From: a virus
IMG/VR virus record: IMGVR_UViG_3300045988_107297
Strand: one strand, 5' to 3'
Length of the DNA stretch: 44,764 bases
The notes beneath the pieces were generated by a model. That model saw nothing but the letters and a program-made list of their open reading frames with translations. It did no database searches and was not told the DNA's origin. Both the position numbers and the translations under genes were made by a program. The stretch's first letter is position 1, and every line of letters starts with the position of its first letter. Of this stretch, positions 13,265-36,115 are shown piece after piece.

Positions 13265-14419
13265 TTAAGGGGTTTCGACGATATGTTTGACTTCATCCGC
13301 CAGCTTCGCGAATTCTTCCATCGCGGCAGAAATGTGAGAATCCTGTGAAATGTAATAATCGTCCGTAACGGAACTGCCGATCTGGTGGCCGATGGCAAGT
13401 TGCAATGCCTCTTTATCCACCTTCGCTTTGGTCGCAATGCTTGCGTATGTGTGGCGGCAAGAGTAAGGCACATAACGATGCGGGTTTTGTACACCAATTT
13501 CTTCCAGCCCGGAGTAAAATTCCCGCACCCGGAAGTTTCGGGTGTTCCACGCGCTTCCGGTCGGGCTGCGAAAGATTTTCTGCCCGGGCTTTGCGGCGTT
13601 GTAGAAGCGCATAAAAACGTCCCACGTGATGGGGTCGAGAACGATGTACCGGTTCTTCCCGGCGGCGGTTTTGGAGCCTTCCAACCAGATGCCGTGGCGC
13701 TCAAAGTCAATGCAATCGTTGCGAGCAATCTTTGCAAGGTCAGCCATGCGGCAGCCGCTCAAACAAAGAAACCAAATGATTCCCGGAACCCGCTCATGCC
13801 GGTGCTTGTAAAGCAAACGCAAATCTTCGTCATCAAACGGCACCCGCTGGCCCTTCACCTCGGCGGTTAGCTTCAACCCCTCGGAGTAGTCCGTCTGGTG
13901 GATTCCGTGCTGCACACACCACATACAGAGCTTGTGCATAAGAGAGCGCAACTTGTGCTGGTGGGACTTTGATTTGCCTTCATCCTCGGCCCGGAACAAG
14001 ACAGCCTCCAGCGTTTCTTTCCGCACGTTGATTGCCTTTATCTTGTGCAGCTCCTTCATGTAACGCCATGCGTACTCCACGTCTTTCAAGTATTTTTCCG
14101 AGTTTTGCCGGAAAGCGCGGTCTGAGATCACCGCGTCATACACCTGTTGCATGGTGTAGTTGCGATACTCAAGATCAGGCTCTTGCTCCGAGGCCGCGAG
14201 AATGGCCCTCTCCGCGTCTTGTTTGGTTTTGTAGCAACCGATATAGGCTCCCCTGTAAACGGCCTTGTAGGGCGAACTGCGCCCTTGCAGACGCGCAATG
14301 GAGCCGTTCCCCTTTGCCCTTCTTGCCTTTGGCCGTGTGGTTGCCGTCTGCCGTTTGCCACACCACGGGCAAAACAGCGCCCCTTCTGGGATGTCTCTTG
14401 CACATCTCACACACGTCAT
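13265..14419 (-). CDS. int: tyrosine recombinase / integrase with N-terminal zinc ribbon
   Basis: C-terminal HRCRHTYAS...LAIGHQIGSSVTDDYY is the R..HxxR..Y catalytic signature. The N-terminus carries CVRCARDIPEGALFCPWCG. GAGGTG lies 6 nt upstream of ATG 14419. Confidence 0.9.
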   Translation of the reverse strand: MTCVRCARDIPEGALFCPWCGKRQTATTRPKARRAKGNGSIARLQGRSSPYKAVYRGAYIGCYKTKQDAERAILAASEQEPDLEYRNYTMQQVYDAVISDRAFRQNSEKYLKDVEYAWRYMKELHKIKAINVRKETLEAVLFRAEDEGKSKSHQHKLRSLMHKLCMWCVQHGIHQTDYSEGLKLTAEVKGQRVPFDDEDLRLLYKHRHERVPGIIWFLCLSGCRMADLAKIARNDCIDFERHGIWLEGSKTAAGKNRYIVLDPITWDVFMRFYNAAKPGQKIFRSPTGSAWNTRNFRVREFYSGLEEIGVQNPHRYVPYSCRHTYASIATKAKVDKEALQLAIGHQIGSSVTDDYYISQDSHISAAMEEFAKLADEVKHIVETP

Positions 14420-14429
14420 GGCTTGCACC

Positions 14430-28506: not shown

Positions 28507-28903
28507 CGAGCGAAAAGCCTGGCTGAGGCGTTACCAGGACGCGCTGGACGACTACCGCATGGCAACCGCCCGGCTGGAAGAGGCCAACACGCAAGCCACG
28601 AAGTGCACGGCCAGCGTGTCCTCTACTCTGGGACGCGGCGGCACAAGCGACCACATCCCGGCGGCCGTGGAGCGGATCGAAGCCATACGCGAGGATGCAA
28701 ACCAGGCCATGGCAGAGGCAAAGGCCGCGCTGGTCGAAATTTCGGCCGCGCTGAAAAAGCTGGAAAGCCGGACAGAGAGGACAGTGCTTGCGTTGCGGTA
28801 CGTGGACGGCTGCACATGGCAGCAGGTGGCGGACAAATGCGGCTATAGCATTGACTGGGTTTATGCACTGCACCGAGCCGCCGTGAAAAATCTGGATAAA
28901 TAA
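28496..28903 (+). CDS. sigma-70 region-4-like late transcription regulator
   Basis: GTG start after AGGGAGGTGA. The C-terminus ERTVLALRYVDGCTWQQVADKCGYSIDWVYALHRAAVKNL is a region-4 HTH. In many Firmicute phages the equivalent gene sits just before terS. Confidence 0.6.
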   Translation: MTYDERKAWLRRYQDALDDYRMATARLEEANTQATKCTASVSSTLGRGGTSDHIPAAVERIEAIREDANQAMAEAKAALVEISAALKKLESRTERTVLALRYVDGCTWQQVADKCGYSIDWVYALHRAAVKNLDK

Positions 28904-28906
28904 AAT

Positions 28907-28946
28907 AAGAGGCCACATCCAAAAGGGTGTGACCTCTTGTTTTTTA
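28907..28946. terminator. bidirectional rho-independent terminator between convergent units
   Basis: AAGAGGCCACATCC (28907-28920) pairs with GGGTGTGACCTCTT (28925-28938), with one mismatch and one G-U pair. T-runs are present on both strands. Confidence 0.75.
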
Positions 28947-28950
28947 TTCG

Positions 28951-29268
28951 TCAAATTAGCCCGAAATGTTCCGCCAACAAAAAGCGGATATAATCCGGAC
29001 AATTCCGCTGTGACCCACACCAGTTTTGCATGGTGCGCAGAGGGATGCAAGCAGCCCGGGCAAAGGCAGATTGGCTCATTCCGGTGGCTTCTGCGAGTTC
29101 CCGCATATTCATGTGCGCAACGTCCCAAAAGCGGGACAGACGTACGACTTCGGCGTCGAGATCAACGCAACCCGGCGCGTCGTCGGGGACGCTCATGGTC
29201 ACATTGTTTTTAAAGACTTCCTTCGGCTGCTCTTGAGCCATTGCAAAGAGTTCTGCTTTGTTCCACAT
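28951..29268 (-). CDS. HTH DNA-binding protein, Aca-like terminal gene of the operon
   Basis: RBS CAGGAGGAAA before ATG 29268. HTH: MRELAEATGMSQSAFARAACIPLRTMQNW. Confidence 0.65.
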   Translation of the reverse strand: MWNKAELFAMAQEQPKEVFKNNVTMSVPDDAPGCVDLDAEVVRLSRFWDVAHMNMRELAEATGMSQSAFARAACIPLRTMQNWCGSQRNCPDYIRFLLAEHFGLI

Positions 29269-29294
29269 TCTTGATTTCCTCCTGTTGATATCTT

Positions 29295-29329
29295 GTTTCA
29301 ATCCACGTCCCCCGCACGGGGGGGACGAC
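29295..29329 (-). repeat. solitary type I-C-like CRISPR repeat unit
   Basis: The minus strand reads GTCGTCCCCCCCGTGCGGGGGACGTGGATTGAAAC. Compare the I-C repeat GTCGCGCCCCGCACGGGCGCGTGGATTGAAAC. There is a single copy, no spacer array and no cas genes. Confidence 0.7.
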
Positions 29330-29332
29330 ACA

Positions 29333-29749
29333 TCACCAGATAGGTGATACTGCCTCGATGGTAAACGGGATGTTTTCCCGCTTACCAGACTTTGTGGGAG
29401 CGGAAACAACGATCGTTTTGATCGCTGCGTCTATTGCGGCCTCAACGCTTCCGGTCACGCGGATTGGGTCGCATGTGATTATTACGAGGTTGGCGTTGCC
29501 GTCACTCGTCCGATAGGCGGAACGAAGATGCCAGCCATCCTTTGTGATGTAGTCCGGCAGCGAAAGCGCAACCCTTTTGTTGTGCGGTGCATCTCCCTGG
29601 AATCCGCACTCCCATTGCCAGCCGGAAGGAACGGGAAGGGCGGTAAACGAAAAGCCGTCCACCTGCGTGAAGCAGGCAGATTCGTCCGGCTCGCGGGTGG
29701 TTGAGCGCCTAACGGCGTATTTTACGGATACAACGACCTCAGTTGTCAT
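29333..29749 (-). CDS. hypothetical protein (138 aa)
   Basis: RBS AAAGGAGGA. No recognisable motif. Confidence 0.6.
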   Translation of the reverse strand: MTTEVVVSVKYAVRRSTTREPDESACFTQVDGFSFTALPVPSGWQWECGFQGDAPHNKRVALSLPDYITKDGWHLRSAYRTSDGNANLVIITCDPIRVTGSVEAAIDAAIKTIVVSAPTKSGKRENIPFTIEAVSPIW

Positions 29750-29827
29750 GGCTATGTCCTCCTTTGGCCTGCCTCATCAGTACCGGGCGGCCATCCCCGG
29801 CAGACGGCCCGAAGGCCGTTTCGGCTG

Positions 29828-30181
29828 TTATGCGGGCATCCCGTCACGCATGGGGATTCGACGGTACCCGGTGAGCTGCCCAACTTCACGGATAAGTGGC
29901 CACATAAACTGTGGGATGTCGGAATACTCCTCATCCTCGTGGAGCATACTGCCGTATGTCGCGTGGTATTCGAGGCCGAAGGCTTCGACCTCCACATAAA
30001 TGCGGCTGCCAAAGTCGCCGCAACTGCAATCGTCAATGGTAACTGTTACGTTACCATTACCCACAACGATTGTGGGCTGGGGGTAGTTGCCGCCGTTGTT
30101 GGCCAGCTCCGGGCGGTTGGGGTCGTAGGTCGCGGCCTCAACATATGATAGGACGCGCAGGGGTTTGCCGGTGAGTTTCAT
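29828..30181 (-). CDS. hypothetical protein (117 aa)
   Basis: RBS GAAGGAGGGA before ATG 30181. Confidence 0.6.
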   Translation of the reverse strand: MKLTGKPLRVLSYVEAATYDPNRPELANNGGNYPQPTIVVGNGNVTVTIDDCSCGDFGSRIYVEVEAFGLEYHATYGSMLHEDEEYSDIPQFMWPLIREVGQLTGYRRIPMRDGMPA

Positions 30182-30204
30182 GGTTATTCCCTCCTTCTTT
30201 GTGT

Positions 30205-30279
30205 ACCCATGAGCGCCCACCCCTTACGGGGTGGCCGGGCTTGCACCGGCGGCGCGTGAGCGTCGGCCTTGCGGGTCAG
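30205..30279 (-). ncRNA. 75-nt structured intercistronic element, copy A
   Basis: About 80% identical to 32246..32320. Three hairpins are preserved by compensatory changes. The strand assignment is assumed from the operon direction. Confidence 0.5.
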
Positions 30280-30620
30280 TTTTCGCGGAAGGTGGTGGTT
30301 ACATCGGGCTCAGGGAGTTCGTCGGGCGTTACTCTCCCGAGCCACAGCTCTGTGGTCTTGGGCTCGTCGGTCTCGGGGTCGTAGCCCACAAGCCCATCAG
30401 AGCCGCGCGCCGTGATGCTCAACACGGCGCCGACCTTCCCTGCGAAGATTTCCTTGCGGTACTCAAGGACAACCTTGCTGAGGCTGTAACCCGCCACGTT
30501 GCCGATTCGAGCGCGCTTTGCGATACGCTCGAAGTTCTGTTCCACCGCCTTGACAACGGTTTCGCCAGAAATTACGTAATCCGAGTAATAGTCCCAAAAA
30601 TGGACGCTGTACTTCTTCAT
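30276..30620 (-). CDS. hypothetical protein (114 aa)
   Basis: RBS AAAGGAGAAA before ATG 30620. The stop codon lies inside element A. Confidence 0.6.
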   Translation of the reverse strand: MKKYSVHFWDYYSDYVISGETVVKAVEQNFERIAKRARIGNVAGYSLSKVVLEYRKEIFAGKVGAVLSITARGSDGLVGYDPETDEPKTTELWLGRVTPDELPEPDVTTTFREN

Positions 30621-30634
30621 TGCTTTTTCTCCTT

Positions 30635-30838
30635 TCACATGAGTACCCAGGGACCGCGACGGAATGCCGACACGGACGGGGTGCCGATGTCCCAGCCGCC
30701 GCCGTACTTCTTCGATGCCGGCTTGTAGGGGTAAGCGGGTTCTGTGCCGCCGTTCTTCGTGCCGCGCAGGATACGTCCATTCTCCACGTACACATCTGCG
30801 CCGCAAATGCGGTGCCAGCCGTCTTTAATCTTCGTCAT
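30635..30838 (-). CDS. hypothetical protein (67 aa)
   Basis: RBS GCAGGAGGA. It is the first gene after promoter 30883-30911. Confidence 0.6.
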   Translation of the reverse strand: MTKIKDGWHRICGADVYVENGRILRGTKNGGTEPAYPYKPASKKYGGGWDIGTPSVSAFRRGPWVLM

Positions 30839-30882
30839 TGCTTTGTCCTCCTGCTTTTTCGTTTTGCTTCCTCGCTGTCTAC

Positions 30883-30911
30883 ACTATACCACTCATTGGG
30901 TGGTGGTGCAA
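30883..30911 (-). promoter_or_regulatory. sigma-70-type promoter TTGCAC-17 nt-TATAGT with TG extension
   Basis: The minus strand reads TTGCAC caccacccaatgagTGg TATAGT. On the plus strand, ACTATA lies at 30883-30888 and GTGCAA at 30906-30911. Confidence 0.6.
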
Positions 30912-30948
30912 TTCGCAATTTGCCTAAATTTTGAGATTCTTTTTTGTG

Positions 30949-30972
30949 CAGCCGTTGCAAATGCAACAGCTG
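30949..30972. promoter_or_regulatory. near-perfect 24-bp palindrome upstream of the promoter (candidate operator)
   Basis: The sequence is CAGCCGTTGCAA/ATGCAACAGCTG. The perfect core GTTGCA-AA-TGCAAC lies at 30954-30967. Confidence 0.5.
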
Positions 30973-31064
30973 GAAACAGCTACCCACACTACAAAAACGC
31001 ACGTGAATGTGATATATTTATGGTGTGAGGATAGGGAGAGGCGAAAGCCCCTCCCCTATTTGCA

Positions 31065-31964
31065 TCACAGGTCGAGCGCTGAAATCTCATCCAGAGCCCG
31101 GCGGGCGGCGCGCTTGCCGTTGTCGGTGAGCTGGCGCTGCCATGCCTGGTTGCGGGGGGACCAGCGGAAAGCCCACTTTTTGAGGATGGCGCGGACCTCT
31201 TCGGCGGGTTTGCCGTCAAAAATCAGCTGTACCCGCATTTGCTCGGGGTCCTCGCGGTAGGTGATGCCGTCGTGGTCCACTTCGGCGGGGGCGGCTTCCT
31301 GGGCGGCCTGCAGGCTCTTCAGCCGCTGCTCAACGCGTTTTGCGTTGGCGAGCGAGTTTGTCAGTACATAGGACGGGTAAGGGGTACCGACGTACCAGCC
31401 ACGCGCCCACATGGCCTCAATCCCATTCTGGGCGGCCGGGGTCAGCTCCGGGCACCCGTCCAGGGTACCGTTCTTCCGATAGTAGGCATTCACGGCCTTC
31501 ATCGCGGCGTGCTCCGCCTTCAGGCCCTCCAGCTTTGCGGTCAGGGCCTCGATCGCCTCGGGGTCGTTGCTCTTGATGGGCTGGGTGTGGGCGGTGCGGA
31601 GTAACTGCAAGTAGTGCTCTGCCCGGTTAAAGGTCTCCCGGTTAGCGTCCCACGCGGCCACCTGCTTGGCCTTCTTCGCGGTCGGGAAATTGCCAGCGCC
31701 GGAGATCATGACGGACGGGCACCGGGTGCCGATCTCGTTGTCACGGTTGATGGCCTCCGCCAGGGTTGCGGCGTACCGGTCAAGCAGGTATTCGGCGCGG
31801 TCTCGCTGCGCCTCGGTGGCGCACTTGGCTTTGACGGTCTCCAGGATTCGCGCGGCCTCGTCCACCTGGGCGGTGTAGCTGGCGGTTGCGCTCCCGGGCT
31901 GGTAGTCGCTAAAGCTGCGCATCTCATGCGCCCGGCGGGCGGTGTCCTCGTTGATAGTGTACAT
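31065..31964 (-). CDS. DUF3560-like protein (299 aa)
   Basis: The C-terminus LIFDGKPAEEVRAILKKWAFRWSPRNQAWQRQL resembles the DUF3560 module seen in conjugative elements and polyvalent proteins. Confidence 0.55.
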   Translation of the reverse strand: MYTINEDTARRAHEMRSFSDYQPGSATASYTAQVDEAARILETVKAKCATEAQRDRAEYLLDRYAATLAEAINRDNEIGTRCPSVMISGAGNFPTAKKAKQVAAWDANRETFNRAEHYLQLLRTAHTQPIKSNDPEAIEALTAKLEGLKAEHAAMKAVNAYYRKNGTLDGCPELTPAAQNGIEAMWARGWYVGTPYPSYVLTNSLANAKRVEQRLKSLQAAQEAAPAEVDHDGITYREDPEQMRVQLIFDGKPAEEVRAILKKWAFRWSPRNQAWQRQLTDNGKRAARRALDEISALDL

Positions 31965-31991
31965 GGTGTCTCCTCCTTGTGATGGGCCGCC

Positions 31992-32210
31992 TTAGCGGCT
32001 TAGCTGGGTGTAGGTCGTGCCGTCCGCGGGCCAGCCGTTAGCGGCCGCGAAGGTGTCAAGGTCGCGGTAGCCGTCGATGGCTCCGATATACTCTCCGTTG
32101 CGCTCGACGATGTAGCAGATACCCTCGTCGGTGACTACGTAGGTGGAGCCGCCATGCGTCCAGCTGGCGGCGCACGGAAAGCGGCGGGACATGGCGCTAG
32201 ATAGCTTCAT
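31992..32210 (-). CDS. hypothetical protein (72 aa)
   Basis: RBS CAAGGAGG before ATG 32210. It lies directly downstream of element B. Confidence 0.55.
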   Translation of the reverse strand: MKLSSAMSRRFPCAASWTHGGSTYVVTDEGICYIVERNGEYIGAIDGYRDLDTFAAANGWPADGTTYTQLSR

Positions 32211-32245
32211 GGTGTAGCCTCCTTGTAGATGTGCTAGGGCTTTCA

Positions 32246-32320
32246 ACCCATGAGCGCCCGCCCATCTGGGCGGCTGGACTTGCACCAGCGGCGGCGGATG
32301 CCGTCGGCCTTGCGGGTCAG
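32246..32320 (-). ncRNA. 75-nt structured intercistronic element, copy B
   Basis: Paralogue of 30205..30279, with the same length and the same position relative to the flanking ORFs. Confidence 0.5.
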
Positions 32321-32409
32321 ATCATGCCCAGGCAGTGCAGCCATAGCATGGGGAGCGATACGCCCCAGCCAAAGCCCAAAGCCAGGCACTCCATGCGGGT
32401 GAGTCTCAT
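32317..32409 (-). CDS. 30-aa hydrophobic peptide
   Basis: AGAGGGAGG lies 7 nt upstream. ATGA overlaps the upstream stop. Translation: MRLTRMECLALGFGWGVSLPMLWLHCLGMI. The stop codon lies inside element B. Confidence 0.4.
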   Translation of the reverse strand: MRLTRMECLALGFGWGVSLPMLWLHCLGMI

Positions 32410-32744
32410 GCTCTCGCCTCCCTCTGCCGGAGGGGCTGGAAAGAGTGGCTGCAGGGGCCTAGGGTGATGCAGTACTCGCGGCGCTTGGCGTCCGACCATG
32501 TGCGCCGGATAGCTGCCAGCAGCTCGACACTCCGGTCGGGGTCTGTGGCCGCGATGCCGACCGGCACGAGATGCGTGCCGCAGTTGCGGGTGATCCATAT
32601 GTACTGACCATAGCGGCCGGTTTCGACGGCCTCGGTCAGCTGGGCGCGGTCGATCTCAAAGTCGGTGGCGTAGTGCTTGACCTCGCGGGATACGTGCCAC
32701 GCCATCTTTTTGATGAGCTCATCGGTGGTAAGTGCTTTGCTCAT
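32406..32744 (-). CDS. hypothetical protein (112 aa)
   Basis: RBS TAAGGAGGA. It is the first gene of the upper reverse operon. Confidence 0.6.
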   Translation of the reverse strand: MSKALTTDELIKKMAWHVSREVKHYATDFEIDRAQLTEAVETGRYGQYIWITRNCGTHLVPVGIAATDPDRSVELLAAIRRTWSDAKRREYCITLGPCSHSFQPLRQREARA

Positions 32745-32793
32745 GTCGTCCTCCTTACTCTTCTGCTCGCGGCCCTGTGCCGCTTGCTGTGAC

Positions 32794-32897
32794 TATATGA
32801 TAGCACATATATGCTAGCATATGCAATAGGCAATGTGCACAAAGATATGTGCTATCATATGTGCAAGATGTATGCTTGCATATAACCTCCGTATAAT
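32794..32897. promoter_or_regulatory. operator-rich divergent promoter region
   Basis: A 16-bp perfect inverted repeat pairs 32795-32810 with 32845-32860. The palindrome ATATGCTAGCATAT lies at 32809-32822, and TGCAAG/CTTGCA at 32862-32880. TATAAT lies at 32892-32897 on the + strand. TTGCAT-18-TATCAT lies on the - strand at 32797-32826. Confidence 0.6.
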
Positions 32898-34245: not shown

Positions 34246-34318
34246 GCCGTCATAGCTCAGTTGGCAGAGCGGCTGCCTTGTAAGTAGCAAGCCGAGGGTT
34301 CGAGACCTTCTGACGGCC
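34246..34318 (+). tRNA. tRNA-Thr (anticodon UGU)
   Basis: Manual fold: GCCGTCA acceptor, GCTC/GAGC D-stem, GCTGC-CTTGTAA-GTAGC anticodon arm, GAGGG-TTCGAGA-CCTTC T-arm, TGACGGC. CCA is not encoded. Confidence 0.85.
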
Positions 34319-34428
34319 CCCCAAGGCCGATGACCCGCTAAAATATTTTGTCTGTGTCCAGGTGGGATTTCGCGGCAGGCCTTCCCCGCGCGCCTCTCTC
34401 TGATGCGTACCATGCGGGGCTTTTTTAT

Positions 34429-34502
34429 TGGGCTGTGGCCAAACGGTAAGGCATGGGACTTTGACTCCCAGATAGCAGGTTCGACACCTGCCAGCCCATC
34501 CA
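34429..34502 (+). tRNA. tRNA-Gln (anticodon UUG)
   Basis: Manual fold: TGGGCTG/CAGCCCA acceptor, GCCAAACGGTAAGGC D-arm (as in bacterial tRNA-Gln), TGGGA-CTTTGAC-TCCCA anticodon arm, GCAGG-TTCGACA-CCTGC T-arm. CCA is encoded. Confidence 0.85.
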
Positions 34503-34633
34503 ATGGGTGAGCCGGGCACAGGATAAGCCCGGAGGGCGGGAACGGGGTGTGCGTGCAAATAGATGGGCAAGCGGGAAAGCCTCCGCCCAGTAAGGCCCTG
34601 CAATGGGTCTGCGCACAAGGGAAAGGAAGAAGT

Positions 34634-36115
34634 ATGGCAGGATTTGCAGACGTAAGAAAAGCGGAAGCGAAATACTGCATGGAGCATCCGGCCTACTTCG
34701 TGGAAACGTATGTTCACATTGAGGACAAGGACGCGGCCGAACTGATTGTCCCCTTCAAGTTGTGGGACGGGCAGAAACAGGCATTGCAGACGTTTGCGAA
34801 CGACCGGCTGGTTGTTGTACTGAAAGCGCGGCAGCTTGGTTTTACATGGCTTGCGTTGGCCGAGGCAAGCAGGCTGTTGGCTTTGAATACGGGCCGAACA
34901 GTCGTTGGCTTGTCCAAAACAGAGGAAGAGGCAAAAGAGCTTGTGCGCCGCATGGGCGTGGTTCTGCGTTATATGCCGGAATTCATCGCAGAGGAAGGCG
35001 CTGTGCCCGCCGGGTGGAGCGGCCCTGTTTTCAAGGCCTCTGCATTGGAGGTGCGGATAAAGTGGCCAGACGGTCCGGAAGGCTCGTTCAAGGCGTTTTC
35101 TTCGTCCCCCTCTGCCGGTCGTTCATTCACGGCTGATTTAATCATCATCGACGAATGGGCGTTTCAGCAGTTCGCGAGAGAAATCTGGCAGGCTGCTTTT
35201 CCTGTTGTCAACCGTCCCACGGGTGGCCGGGTCATTGGCCTGTCCACAATCAAACGTGGAACACTGTTTGAGGAAATCTACACAAACCCGGACAACGGGT
35301 TCACGAAACTTTTCCTGCCGTGGAGTGCTGACCCCCGCCGGGATGAAGCATGGTACAAACGAACTCTGAACGCGCTGGGCGAAGATGAAACCTATCAGGA
35401 GTACCCCGCAACTGTAGATCAGGCGCTGGAAGTCCCCGGCGGCGCGTTCTTCCCAGAAGTGAGGAAGGAAACCCATTGTGTGGATAAACTGCCCGCAAAG
35501 GGCAGGCGCTATTGCGTGATGGACTACGGCCTTGATATGCTGAGCGTCCATTGGGTAAACATTGATGTAACAGGCCATGCCTGTGTGTACAAAGAGTATA
35601 ACGAAAGCAATTTGCCCATCGGCGCGGCGGCTGAAACCGTCTTGAAGCTGTCGAAGGGCGAAGAAGTTGAGTTGTTCTTGGCCCCCTCTGACCTGTGGGG
35701 ACGCAGCCAGGAAAGCGGCAAGAGCCGGGCGCAGCTGTTCCTTGAAGCGGGACTTCAATTGGTGCAGGTGAGCCGGGACTTCCCTGCCGGATGCGCGGCC
35801 ATGAAGGAATGGTTCCGAATTGACCCGGCGACTGATACGGCATGGCTGACAATGTACAAGACCCCGACACTGTTGAGGTGCCTACAGAAAATTCAAAAAG
35901 ATGAGCGCAAACCGGACGTTTACGCAAAAGAACCGCATAGCTTGACACACTCCGTGGATAGCTTGCGGTATTTTTGTGTCTGGTGGACGGCGCCCGCCGA
36001 GGCCACGCAAACAAGGAAGCACGTCACATGGGAATCTGACCTGTGGGAGGATTACTACAACGCTGACGAAGAGGGCAAGGCTTACATGATTCAGAAATTT
36101 GGAGACCCGTTTTGA
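34634..36115 (+). CDS. terL: terminase large subunit
   Basis: Walker A-like VVVLKARQLGFTW, Walker B DLIIIDEWAF, nuclease-domain CVMDYGLDMLSV. RBS GGAAAGGAAG lies before ATG 34634. Confidence 0.85.
   Translation: MAGFADVRKAEAKYCMEHPAYFVETYVHIEDKDAAELIVPFKLWDGQKQALQTFANDRLVVVLKARQLGFTWLALAEASRLLALNTGRTVVGLSKTEEEAKELVRRMGVVLRYMPEFIAEEGAVPAGWSGPVFKASALEVRIKWPDGPEGSFKAFSSSPSAGRSFTADLIIIDEWAFQQFAREIWQAAFPVVNRPTGGRVIGLSTIKRGTLFEEIYTNPDNGFTKLFLPWSADPRRDEAWYKRTLNALGEDETYQEYPATVDQALEVPGGAFFPEVRKETHCVDKLPAKGRRYCVMDYGLDMLSVHWVNIDVTGHACVYKEYNESNLPIGAAAETVLKLSKGEEVELFLAPSDLWGRSQESGKSRAQLFLEAGLQLVQVSRDFPAGCAAMKEWFRIDPATDTAWLTMYKTPTLLRCLQKIQKDERKPDVYAKEPHSLTHSVDSLRYFCVWWTAPAEATQTRKHVTWESDLWEDYYNADEEGKAYMIQKFGDPF

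Follow-up and report, generated by a model that had tools for sequence, protein, structure and literature searches.

Twister-sister self-cleaving ribozymes were reported in 2015 by comparative genomics (PMC8782182, PMC6765202) and are known from a crystal structure, cleavage in vitro taking place at C62-A63 (PMC5660989). Processing of polycistronic transcripts has been suggested for them, while the biological role of the bacterial and phage representatives is largely unknown (PMC6765202). In prophages, arrays of hammerhead ribozymes flank genes of varying identity and are active both in vitro and in vivo, and processing into gene-length mRNAs has been proposed (PMC3088659). Published work already covers the twister-sister family, from structure and cleavage site to the way it clusters with other ribozymes between variable phage genes. 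In the following sections we compare with these systems a locus in a temperate phage, for which the window is the whole stretch of 44,764 nucleotides deposited as IMG/VR record IMGVR_UViG_3300045988_107297.

Identity and fold of the two repeats

Two 75-nt copies, pointed out in a sequence-only reading of the window, are present at 30205-30279 and 32246-32320 (copies A and B). Their gapped global alignment has 65 identical columns out of 78 (83%); BLAST within the window returns 80.5% over 77 columns with an E value of 3e-14, the next best match having an E value of 0.03. The shared ends on the plus strand are ACCCATGAGCGCCC and GTCGGCCTTGCGGGTCAG, as quoted in that reading, and similarity drops off abruptly beyond them. 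The longest exact runs that the copies share are 14 and 19 nt.

The sequence-only reading matched the copies to no RNA family and implied that they were novel. The Rfam scan that it proposed gives RF02681, the twister-sister family, for both: copy A (TS-A) scores 85.8 bits (E 1e-18) and copy B (TS-B) 78.3 bits (E 2e-16), each over model positions 1-81 of 81, on the minus strand only and against a gathering score of 34. A model built in this analysis (R1) scores them at 93.6 and 94.2 bits. By these matches we assign both repeats to the twister-sister class of self-cleaving ribozymes; they have the four-way-junction form and are encoded on the minus strand. They belong to an already described family in its typical context and are no new kind of element. 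The core of the earlier proposal was right: a structured RNA under selection is encoded by the minus strand and separates a stop codon from the following ribosome-binding site. The elements and their parts are as follows.

30200-30279, minus strand: TS-A, match to RF02681 and R1; structured core, P1 to P1, from 30276 to 30205
30276-30273 / 30208-30205, minus strand: P1 of TS-A
30272-30268, minus strand: 5′ strand of L1 of TS-A, GCAAG
30267-30265 / 30217-30215, minus strand: P2 of TS-A
30262-30260 / 30255-30253, minus strand: P3 of TS-A
30250-30247 / 30237-30234, minus strand: P4 of TS-A
30246-30238, minus strand: SL4 loop of TS-A, GUGCAAGCC
30233-30228 / 30223-30218, minus strand: P5 of TS-A
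30214-30209, minus strand: 3′ strand of L1 of TS-A, GCUCAU
C(30211)/A(30210), minus strand: predicted scissile bond of TS-A, GCUC/AU mapped to C62-A63 in the numbering of PMC5660989
32241-32320, minus strand: TS-B, match to RF02681 and R1; core from 32317 to 32246
32313-32309, minus strand: 5′ strand of L1 of TS-B, GCAAG
32285-32277, minus strand: SL4 loop of TS-B, GUGCAAGUC, identical to the crystallised SL4
32255-32250, minus strand: 3′ strand of L1 of TS-B, GCUCAU
C(32252)/A(32251), minus strand: predicted scissile bond of TS-B, mapped on the numbering of PMC5660989

All 20 model pairs form in both copies, and the internal loop L1, with the active site, separates P1 from P2. The hairpins drawn in the sequence-only reading find their places in this fold: hairpin 1 is P5, with A-U in copy A and G-C in copy B; hairpin 2 comprises P4 and the G29-C37 pair of SL4 (C-G versus U-A); and the third is P3 with the G13-C24 / A14.C23 extension known from the crystal structure. 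The ACCC/GGGU pairing also exists and is P1, but it does not close the four-way junction, which is the part played by P2 (GCC/GGC). The conserved nucleotides of L1 (G5 C6. A8 G9 / G59 C60 U61. A63 U64) and of SL4 (G29 U30 G31 C32 A33 A34 G35. C37) are intact in TS-A and TS-B, both of which read GUGCAAG(C/U)C in SL4. In each, the 3′ strand of L1 also offers C-A as the predicted scissile step and includes the essential A63. The element is a predicted self-cleaving catalytic RNA, with an active site of unpaired conserved nucleotides, and not a passive regulatory hairpin cluster.

Single-sequence folding energies on the minus strand are no better than chance against shuffled controls (z = -0.6 and -0.7), and those on the plus strand are just as good or better (z = -2.1 and -2.3). 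The sequence being GC-rich and lacking a folding-energy signal, it is covariation and the covariance-model match, not thermodynamics, that support the structure. Local compensatory evolution following duplication in this genome does not account for the differences between the copies, which belong to two widespread sub-lineages, one with GCCG in P4 and CGC in P3 (copy A) and a commoner one with GCUG in P4 and CGGC in P3 (copy B); positional orthologues in the related phages L006 and L011 retain the same types.

The operon and its phage

TS-A, TS-B and a type II hammerhead ribozyme each lie in a layout of stop codon, ribozyme, SD and start within a leftward operon of small ORFan genes, listed here in the order of transcription.

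32406-32744, minus strand: g1, 112-aa ORFan, first gene of the operon; homologues in L021, L044 and L072
32317-32409, minus strand: g1b, ORF for a 30-aa hydrophobic peptide, MRLTRMECLALGFGWGVSLPMLWLHCLGMI; its TGA overlaps the first P1 nucleotide of TS-B
31992-32210, minus strand: g2, 72-aa ORFan, first gene past TS-B
31065-31964, minus strand: g3, 299 aa; phrog_19458 “primase” (E 8e-84), weak match to DUF3560
30635-30838, minus strand: g4, 67 aa; phrog_33937, unknown function
30276-30620, minus strand: g5, 114-aa ORFan; its TGA (30278-30276) overlaps the first P1 nucleotide of TS-A
29828-30181, minus strand: g6, 117-aa ORFan between TS-A and the hammerhead
29763-29826, minus strand: type II hammerhead, RF02276, 64 bits (gathering score 37), model positions 1-66
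29333-29749, minus strand: g7, 138-aa ORFan, first gene past the hammerhead

The placement of the two repeats agrees with the sequence-only reading. The upstream stop falls in the first bases of each element, the TGA codons at 30278-30276 and 32319-32317 (minus strand) overlapping the first P1 nucleotide, and the next SD, GGAGG, follows 10 nt (copy A) or 23 nt (copy B) past the last P1 nucleotide, with start codons at 30181 and 32210, respectively. The hammerhead is found 375 nt downstream of TS-A on the same strand, between the stop of g6 (29830-29828) and the start of g7 (29749). Its core motifs CUGAUGA, GAAA(C) and GUC/U are present, a pseudoknot between loop I and the 3′ tail (UGGC/GCCA) is possible, and cleavage is predicted at C(29803)/U(29802). 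A search of the window for further sub-threshold ribozymes found none.

The g1b peptide has 90-97% amino-acid identity in L021, L044, L072 and L081; g2 is 96-100% identical in L006, L011, L020 and L115, directly after a twister-sister ribozyme each time; and g3 is the gene commonest near twister-sister, with tblastn matches in 58 of 120 viral loci bearing the ribozyme. One relative, L032, is without g6 and the hammerhead, and its twister-sister is followed directly by g7. Comparison of the flanking proteins with Pfam, PHROGs, NCBIfam, PADLOC and PDB yielded only the PHROG “primase” label of g3, for which no PDB relative was found, and an HTH-like match of g8. No promoter or terminator defining the transcription unit was confidently predicted in a scan. 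Among deposited phage genomes there was no close relative, the sole match being to a tRNA. The host is probably a member of the gut Oscillospiraceae or related Clostridia; since the genome stretches with the motif have only the ribozyme in common with the window, this host is read solely from the taxonomic distribution of the motif.

The family at large and alternative explanations

Over 120 viral contigs of IMG/VR and 85 genome stretches, mostly from gut Oscillospiraceae, carry this motif. Twister-sister arrays have up to six copies, and relatives carry arrays of twister-sister, hammerhead II and RAGATH-5. All copies are on one strand in each of the 46 multi-copy loci (46/46), at a median spacing of 555 nt. 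An upstream ORF ends within 150 nt, and an SD and start lie downstream, in 136 of 149 instances, compared with 26 of 149 on the opposite strand; the upstream ORF mostly ends 0-11 nt before P1 and the start codon follows at a median of 35 nt.

The compensatory changes that the two copies first suggested hold up in an alignment of 98 distinct family members, in which 98.5% of the pair cells are paired (34-60% with slid partners), double-sided changes occur in 14 of the 20 pairs, P2 being uninformative because its pairs are fixed by the search motif, and none of 500 shuffles reaches the observed values. The loci were gathered by an exact motif spanning L1, P2 and SL4, and conservation of these parts in the alignment is therefore partly by construction. 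An asymmetry of G.U over A.C in the family alignment (29 versus 18) weakly favours the minus strand. Of natural core variants, A7U and C62U occur, and A63 is invariant among the rows listed; the first two are reported as tolerated and A63 as essential (PMC5660989).

Blocks of homology that the window shares with its relatives stop at the edges of ribozymes, namely at 32316/32317 (L115, L006, L011, L020) and further at 30276, 30195-30204 and 29764-29830, and around TS-A only the ribozyme itself is shared with L006, L011 and L066. Pairs of related instances share the upstream gene only in 378 cases, the downstream gene only in 300 and both in 190, and cassette content varies among relatives. The ribozymes coincide with mosaic breakpoints and go with no fixed neighbour on either side; breakpoints are also found at ribozyme-free gene borders (28951, 30613-30631, 31063, 31962), so that there is no demonstrated excess at ribozymes. 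It is conceivable, though we would not expect it, that the interchangeable classes (twister-sister, hammerhead II and RAGATH-5) act as “plug-and-play” insulator junctions in gut Oscillospiraceae phages, the conserved 72-nt sequence maybe also serving as a recombination joint. If so, ribozymes bracketing each small accessory gene would reset the mRNA ends, and cassettes could shuffle between phages with expression undisturbed.

The block ends at ribozyme borders, the relatives that share only the ribozyme around TS-A, the 378, 300 and 190 instance pairs and the differing cassettes would also suit REP- or MITE-like selfish repeats or recombination linkers, some 75 nt being kept by spreading or by homology in cassette swaps and RNA cleavage being secondary or irrelevant. 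We consider this improbable. The breakpoints at ribozyme-free gene borders are what ordinary phage mosaicism gives, none of the 46 arrays has an opposite-strand copy, placement is almost always intercistronic (136/149), and copies A and B have only short exact runs in common (14 and 19 nt). Moreover, the unpaired nucleotides of the catalytic core are conserved and the stems covary, which argues for selection on RNA and not on DNA homology. Nothing in the orientation, placement or core conservation resembles a known mobile repeat spread at random, which the sequence-only reading had named as the finding that would speak against it. A passive RNA, be it an intercistronic stabiliser, an RNase processing site, a terminator-like hairpin cluster or a ribozyme relic that does not cleave, would agree with GC-rich multi-hairpin elements right behind stop codons, and a simple scan does give one terminator-like site in TS-A. 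That site is on the plus strand only, however, and the coding (minus) strand is without a U-tract after the element; a relic should show core substitutions, whereas the core is fully intact in both copies and their scores (78-86 bits) equal those of the best family members in other loci. This makes a merely passive role very unlikely.

Least credible of all is an ssDNA structure (serving, for instance, in replication, in packaging or as the target of a recombinase) or a tRNA-like element, an explanation that is effectively refuted already. It could draw on the plus strand, which folds slightly better than shuffled sequence (the z values of -2.1 and -2.3), and on a 75-nt cloverleaf-like shape with three hairpins that initially resembles a tRNA; but neither ARAGORN nor Rfam (RF00005) finds a tRNA at either site. 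The ssDNA alternative left open by the sequence-only reading is unsupported, the twister-sister match being strand-specific and the orientation always that of the flanking genes, and the G.U pairs of the family would become A.C mismatches on the other strand.

Proposed processing and comparison with known systems

The reading as a whole, in which minus-strand twister-sister ribozymes lie in a polycistronic operon and would cut its transcript, is in our judgement very probable. Cutting of a polycistronic phage transcript into gene-length mRNAs, a role long proposed, is the most likely function. What the analysis shows is the family identity, the intact core, the covarying structure and a same-strand position between genes, clustered with other ribozymes; that TS-A and TS-B themselves cleave, and do so for mRNA processing or insulation, is inferred.

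On transcription each element of about 72 nt would fold into P1, L1 and P2, the last closing the junction with P3, P4 and P5, and the conserved SL4 loop (GUGCAAGYC) would dock onto L1 (GCAAG / GCUCAU). A Mg2+-dependent internal transesterification would cut the backbone between the C and A of GCUC/AU. The upstream mRNA would have as its 3′ end nearly the whole compact, GC-rich ribozyme with a 2′,3′-cyclic phosphate, and the downstream mRNA would have a 5′-OH, a short leader of 29 or 41 nt that does not depend on context, and its own SD. The 3′ product of TS-A is expected to start 5′-OH-AUGGGU, 29 nt ahead of the g6 start codon, and that of TS-B to have a 41-nt leader ahead of the g2 start codon. 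TS-B, TS-A and the hammerhead would together split the transcript into g1-g1b, g2-g3-g4-g5, g6, and g7 onwards, the cuts by TS-A and the hammerhead releasing a 408-nt monocistronic g6 RNA (30210 to 29803). The stability and translation of each unit would be uncoupled from its neighbours.

Unmasking of the SD by cleavage was considered and rejected: predicted accessibility shows no consistent change on cleavage, and no specific translational mechanism is therefore supported. Leaderless translation from the AUG that cleavage would leave at the 5′ end (C/AUGGGU) was likewise considered and not adopted. Of 239 instances, 145 have a run of at least 30 open codons in the frame of this AUG (control frames, 125 and 92); within the window it begins only ORFs of eight and two codons. 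Leaderless mRNAs with a 5′-OH are poor substrates in E. coli.

For the annotation, an unknown structured repeat gives way to three catalytic RNAs that have names and predicted cleavage sites, and the accessory-gene operon of this temperate gut phage can be divided into its likely mRNA units. The question is why phages put fast self-cleaving ribozymes between small genes. For this the window is a convenient, though not unique, test case, having a 408-nt g6 unit bracketed by two ribozyme classes and natural relatives without one or the other ribozyme.

The window elements resemble twister-sister RF02681 in the full-length model match, the P1-L1-P2 arrangement with P3, P4 and P5, all conserved nucleotides of L1 and SL4, a predicted cleavage between C and A in the 3′ strand of L1, and the location near phage genes and other self-cleaving ribozymes. 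Nothing of substance sets them apart, the differences being a family-typical sequence and length of P3 and P5 and, at position 36 of SL4, a C or a U. As in the prophage type II hammerhead arrays (PMC3088659), same-strand ribozymes flank genes or short blocks of varying identity, and one type II hammerhead (29763-29826) belongs to the window array. Twister-sister differs from hammerhead II in fold and active site; with the latter most of the ribozyme goes to the 5′ end of the downstream RNA, whereas with twister-sister it goes to the 3′ end of the upstream RNA. The twister ribozymes (RF03160, RF03154, RF02684) are similar in P4 terminal-loop sequence and helical layout and occur in similar genomic surroundings (PMC6154101, PMC6765202). 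Unlike twister-sister, twister depends on two pseudoknots, and the step that it cleaves, U-A, lies on the other side of the P1/P2 loop; no twister match was found for either window element.

A functional likeness may be drawn, by analogy, between the layout of stop, ribozyme, SD and start and the RiboJ-type engineered ribozyme insulators, reportedly the work of Lou et al. in 2012 in Nat Biotechnol. Located just upstream of an RBS or ORF, RiboJ-type ribozymes, and those of ribozyme-dependent translation in RNA viruses (bioRxiv 10.1101/2024.05.16.594327), remove the upstream RNA context and standardise the 5′ leader. In contrast to the window, RiboJ-type insulators are synthetic constructs, and ribozyme-dependent translation belongs to a eukaryotic viral system.

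Family identity of the two elements

A scan of the window against Rfam returns three ribozymes, all on the minus strand:

30200-30279, minus strand: twister-sister ribozyme RF02681, copy A (TS-A), full-length, 85.8 bits (gathering score 34)
32241-32320, minus strand: twister-sister ribozyme RF02681, copy B (TS-B), full-length, 78.3 bits (gathering score 34)
29763-29826, minus strand: type II hammerhead RF02276 (HH-II), 64 bits (gathering score 37)

No ribozymes beyond these were found in a permissive scan of the window. The sequence-only reading had correctly placed two 75-nt elements at 30205-30279 and 32246-32320; what it observed was accurate, and the structure it inferred was correct. It recognised no RNA family and proposed an Rfam scan, which assigns both copies to RF02681.

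The two copies are 80.5-83% identical, depending on gap treatment, and share identical ends with sharp boundaries. They match each other with a BLAST E value of 3e-14 within the 44.8-kb window, the next self-hit having an E value of 0.03. Model alignments show all conserved nucleotides in both, arranged as P1 (ACCC/GGGU), internal loop L1 (GCAAG opposite GCUCAU), P2 (GCC/GGC), P3, P4 and P5, with P4 capped by the SL4 loop GUGCAAG(C/U)C. In the four-way-junction crystal structure L1 is numbered G5-C6-A7-A8-G9 and G59-C60-U61-C62|A63-U64, and SL4 G29...C37; cleavage occurs at C62-A63, with A63 being essential (PMC5660989). The SL4 of TS-B is identical to the crystallised one. Mapping this numbering onto the window predicts scissile bonds at C30211|A30210 (TS-A) and C32252|A32251 (TS-B). 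The three hairpins in which pairing was said to be kept where the copies differ do keep it, and correspond to P5, to P4 plus the G29-C37 loop pair, and to P3 plus the G13-C24 / A14.C23 extension, respectively. The ACCC...GGGT pairing, which had been read as able to close a four-way junction, is P1 and lies beyond the catalytic loop; P2 closes the junction. Both copies possess every testable defining feature of the family, cleavage itself being predicted.

Covariation, strand and sub-lineages

Further loci were collected with the strict core motif GCAAGGCC...GGTGCAAG...GGCGCTCAT, which matches upwards of 120 IMG/VR viral contigs at the least, and 85 stretches of a species-representative genome collection. 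The latter derive mostly from gut Oscillospiraceae and other Clostridia, the genera including Oscillibacter, Dysosmobacter, Colidextribacter, Pseudoflavonifractor, Faecalibacterium, Gemmiger and Angelakisella. Public assemblies of viruses and bacteria contain near-identical copies in abundance. A7U or C62U is found in natural variants that the strict motif does not cover; both substitutions are reported to be tolerated (PMC5660989).

A covariance model of our own, built from 11 sequences and the published structure, recovers 134 instances from the window and 99 loci. In an alignment of 98 distinct sequences fitted to the model, 98.5% of pair cells hold standard pairs, versus 34-60% after a shift of the 3′ partners by 1-3 columns. 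Double-sided changes occur in 14 of the 20 pairs, and the observed covariation values were reached by none of 500 shuffles. The search motif fixed P2, L1 and SL4, leaving P1, P3, P4 and P5 as the only informative helices, and it is these that covary. Single-sequence folding energies are uninformative, the plus strand folding at least equally well, and the asymmetry of G.U over A.C (29 vs 18) points to the minus strand only mildly. The strand is therefore assigned on gene orientation, on the model match, which is strand-specific, and on which nucleotides are conserved at unpaired positions.

That the copies are paralogues with compensatory changes holds, but the differences did not arise by recent local evolution: two main sub-lineages exist among 301 instances. 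The B type (P3 CGGC with P4 GCUG) accounts for 178 of these, and the A type (P4 GCCG) occurs with P3 CGCA in 34 instances and in a few related CGC-type variants. Two related phages (L006 and L011) each have one B-type copy and one A-type copy, separated by about 2 kb and ordered as they are in the window, so the split is older than these phages.

The leftward operon and its predicted processing

The window appears to be the complete genome of a temperate phage. In addition to the integrase and terminase listed below, it encodes an anti-repressor, a DnaB-like helicase, a methyltransferase, a portal, a major head protein and an endolysin.

13265-14428: integrase
34547-36115: terminase large subunit
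34246-34320, plus strand: tRNA-Thr(UGU), just upstream of the terminase gene
34384-34420, plus strand: weak abiF-RNA-like match (28.6 bits vs 37), between the two tRNAs
34429-34502, plus strand: tRNA-Gln(UUG), just upstream of the terminase gene

Both tRNAs are conserved in five relatives (L006, L011, L020, L021 and L115). A sub-threshold candidate D12-methyl RNA (RF02950; 34497-34544, plus strand; 51.6 bits vs 57, E 1e-6) adjoins the tRNA-Gln 3′ end and stops 2 nt before the terminase start at 34547; the match is good over the conserved 3′ half (GGGUGAG..GGCACAG.AUAA..AGGGCGGGAACG).

The ribozymes are located within a leftward operon (about 32.8 to 28.9 kb), antiparallel to most genes of the window, in the order g1, g1b, [TS-B], g2, g3, gap, g4, g5, [TS-A], g6, [HH-II], g7, g8. 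The genes flanking both twister-sister copies are on the minus strand. The TGA stop of the upstream ORF (30278-30276 at TS-A, 32319-32317 at TS-B) overlaps each element at its first paired nucleotide. A GGAGG Shine-Dalgarno sequence follows 10 nt (TS-A) or 23 nt (TS-B) past the element, the start codons lying at 30181 and 32210, respectively. HH-II is placed 375 nt downstream of TS-A, after the g6 stop and before the g7 start. Against Pfam, PHROGs, NCBIfam, PADLOC and PDB, nearly all of the operon's products count as ORFans, save for g3, for g4, which belongs to a PHROG of unknown function, and for g8, which is HTH-like.

31065-31964, minus strand: g3, 299 aa, phrog_19458, labelled 'primase'; weak DUF3560
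32317-32409, minus strand: g1b, 30-aa hydrophobic ORF MRLTRMECLALGFGWGVSLPMLWLHCLGMI, overlapping the g1 end, with its stop inside TS-B P1

No relative of g3 was found in PDB. Its homologues occur in 58 of 120 viral loci with the twister-sister motif, among the matches listed, and the gene is strongly ribozyme-associated. Since g1b recurs in four other contigs with 90-97% amino-acid identity, and not always beside a ribozyme, it is probably a real gene for a small membrane peptide.

The sole long non-coding gap in the operon (30839-31064, minus strand) may be an internal promoter/operator that splits it; a simple promoter scan called no promoter there. By eye, it contains a GC-rich hairpin without a U-tract just past the g3 stop (about 31031-31060), an inverted repeat GTTGCA-AA-TGCAAC (30954-30967) and an extended -10-like TGGTATAGT on the minus strand (30891-30883).

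The analysis establishes the identity and architecture of the ribozymes; their cleavage chemistry comes from the literature, and we infer that TS-A and TS-B are cleaved and for what purpose. Transcription of the operon would yield a polycistronic RNA in which each twister-sister would fold and be cut at C|A within L1. With the site so close to the motif's 3′ terminus, the four-way-junction body would stay entire on the upstream RNA, forming a structured 3′ end that carries a 2′,3′-cyclic phosphate, and the downstream RNA would begin 5′-OH-AUGGGU, with an SD-bearing leader of 29 nt (g6) or 41 nt (g2). HH-II would cut at C29803|U29802 with the reverse outcome, most of the hammerhead being left at the 5′ end of the g7 RNA. 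Four units are predicted:

upstream to 32252, minus strand: ...g1-g1b
32251-30211, minus strand: g2-g3-g4-g5, unless split by the hairpin and promoter-like sequence of the 31064-30839 gap
30210-29803, minus strand: 408-nt monocistronic g6 RNA, bracketed by TS-A and HH-II
29802 onward, minus strand: g7-g8

Stability and translation would likely be uncoupled between adjacent cistrons, an idea already proposed for ribozymes (PMC3088659, PMC6765202). No consistent cleavage-dependent change in SD accessibility is predicted, and the terminal AUG gives no clear family-wide signal as a start codon. The predicted TS-A 3′ product would open with an 8-codon ORF (30210-30182, minus strand), AUG GGU ACA CAA AGA AGG AGG GAA UAA, which stops 2 nt before the g6 start; the TS-B equivalent is only AUG GGU UGA. 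The window offers a clean natural test case for the purpose of phage ribozyme arrays.

Placement and mosaicism across loci

Placement between genes is highly non-random across loci. A same-strand upstream ORF ending within 150 nt, together with a downstream SD and start, accompanies 136 of 149 instances, compared to 26 of 149 in the opposite-strand control. The upstream ORF mostly ends 0-11 nt before P1, the start codon follows the ribozyme by a median of 35 nt, and the TGA/P1 overlap seen in the window recurs in 36 instances. Every copy is on one strand in all 46 multi-copy loci, with a median spacing of 555 nt (minimum 270), or about one small gene per interval. The largest arrays hold six copies within 3-5 kb and are found in Dysosmobacter and Oscillospiraceae genome contigs (L131, L158, L176). 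Relatives combine twister-sister, hammerhead II and RAGATH-5, the last typified by one contig (L017):

1539-1594 of L017, minus strand: RAGATH-5 RF02685, inside a four-copy twister-sister array (53.3 bits vs 50)

Both this placement and the single-strand arrays contradict a REP/MITE-like repeat. A passive hairpin cluster or terminator is contradicted by sequence inspection and the model alignment, and a single-stranded DNA structure or tRNA-like element by the Rfam scan and by ARAGORN, which reports no tRNA at either site.

Homology blocks between window positions 28900-32800 and eight relatives (L115, L006, L011, L020, L032, L072, L021, L066) frequently end at ribozyme borders: at 32316|32317 in four relatives, and also at 30276 and 29764-29830. 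The ribozyme alone is sometimes the shared part, and comparison of the proteins shows that relatives have exchanged the gene cassettes lying between ribozymes. In L032 the order is g5-[TS]-g7, and both g6 and the hammerhead are missing; in L115, TS-A is absent and g5 is fused to g6; L072, L021 and L044 have g1-g1b upstream of a twister-sister in common and differ downstream. Related instance pairs share only the upstream flank in 378 cases, only the downstream flank in 300, and both in 190. Since breakpoints also occur at gene borders without a ribozyme, an excess at ribozymes, or a role as recombination joints, is not demonstrated, and the pattern is consistent with ordinary phage mosaicism.

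Twister-sister was discovered via searches of intergenic regions near ribozyme-associated genes (PMC6765202), and the genomic setting observed here matches that route. The literature and Rfam already describe the element, its structure and its genomic setting; the finding is a known ribozyme class rediscovered in its typical setting.
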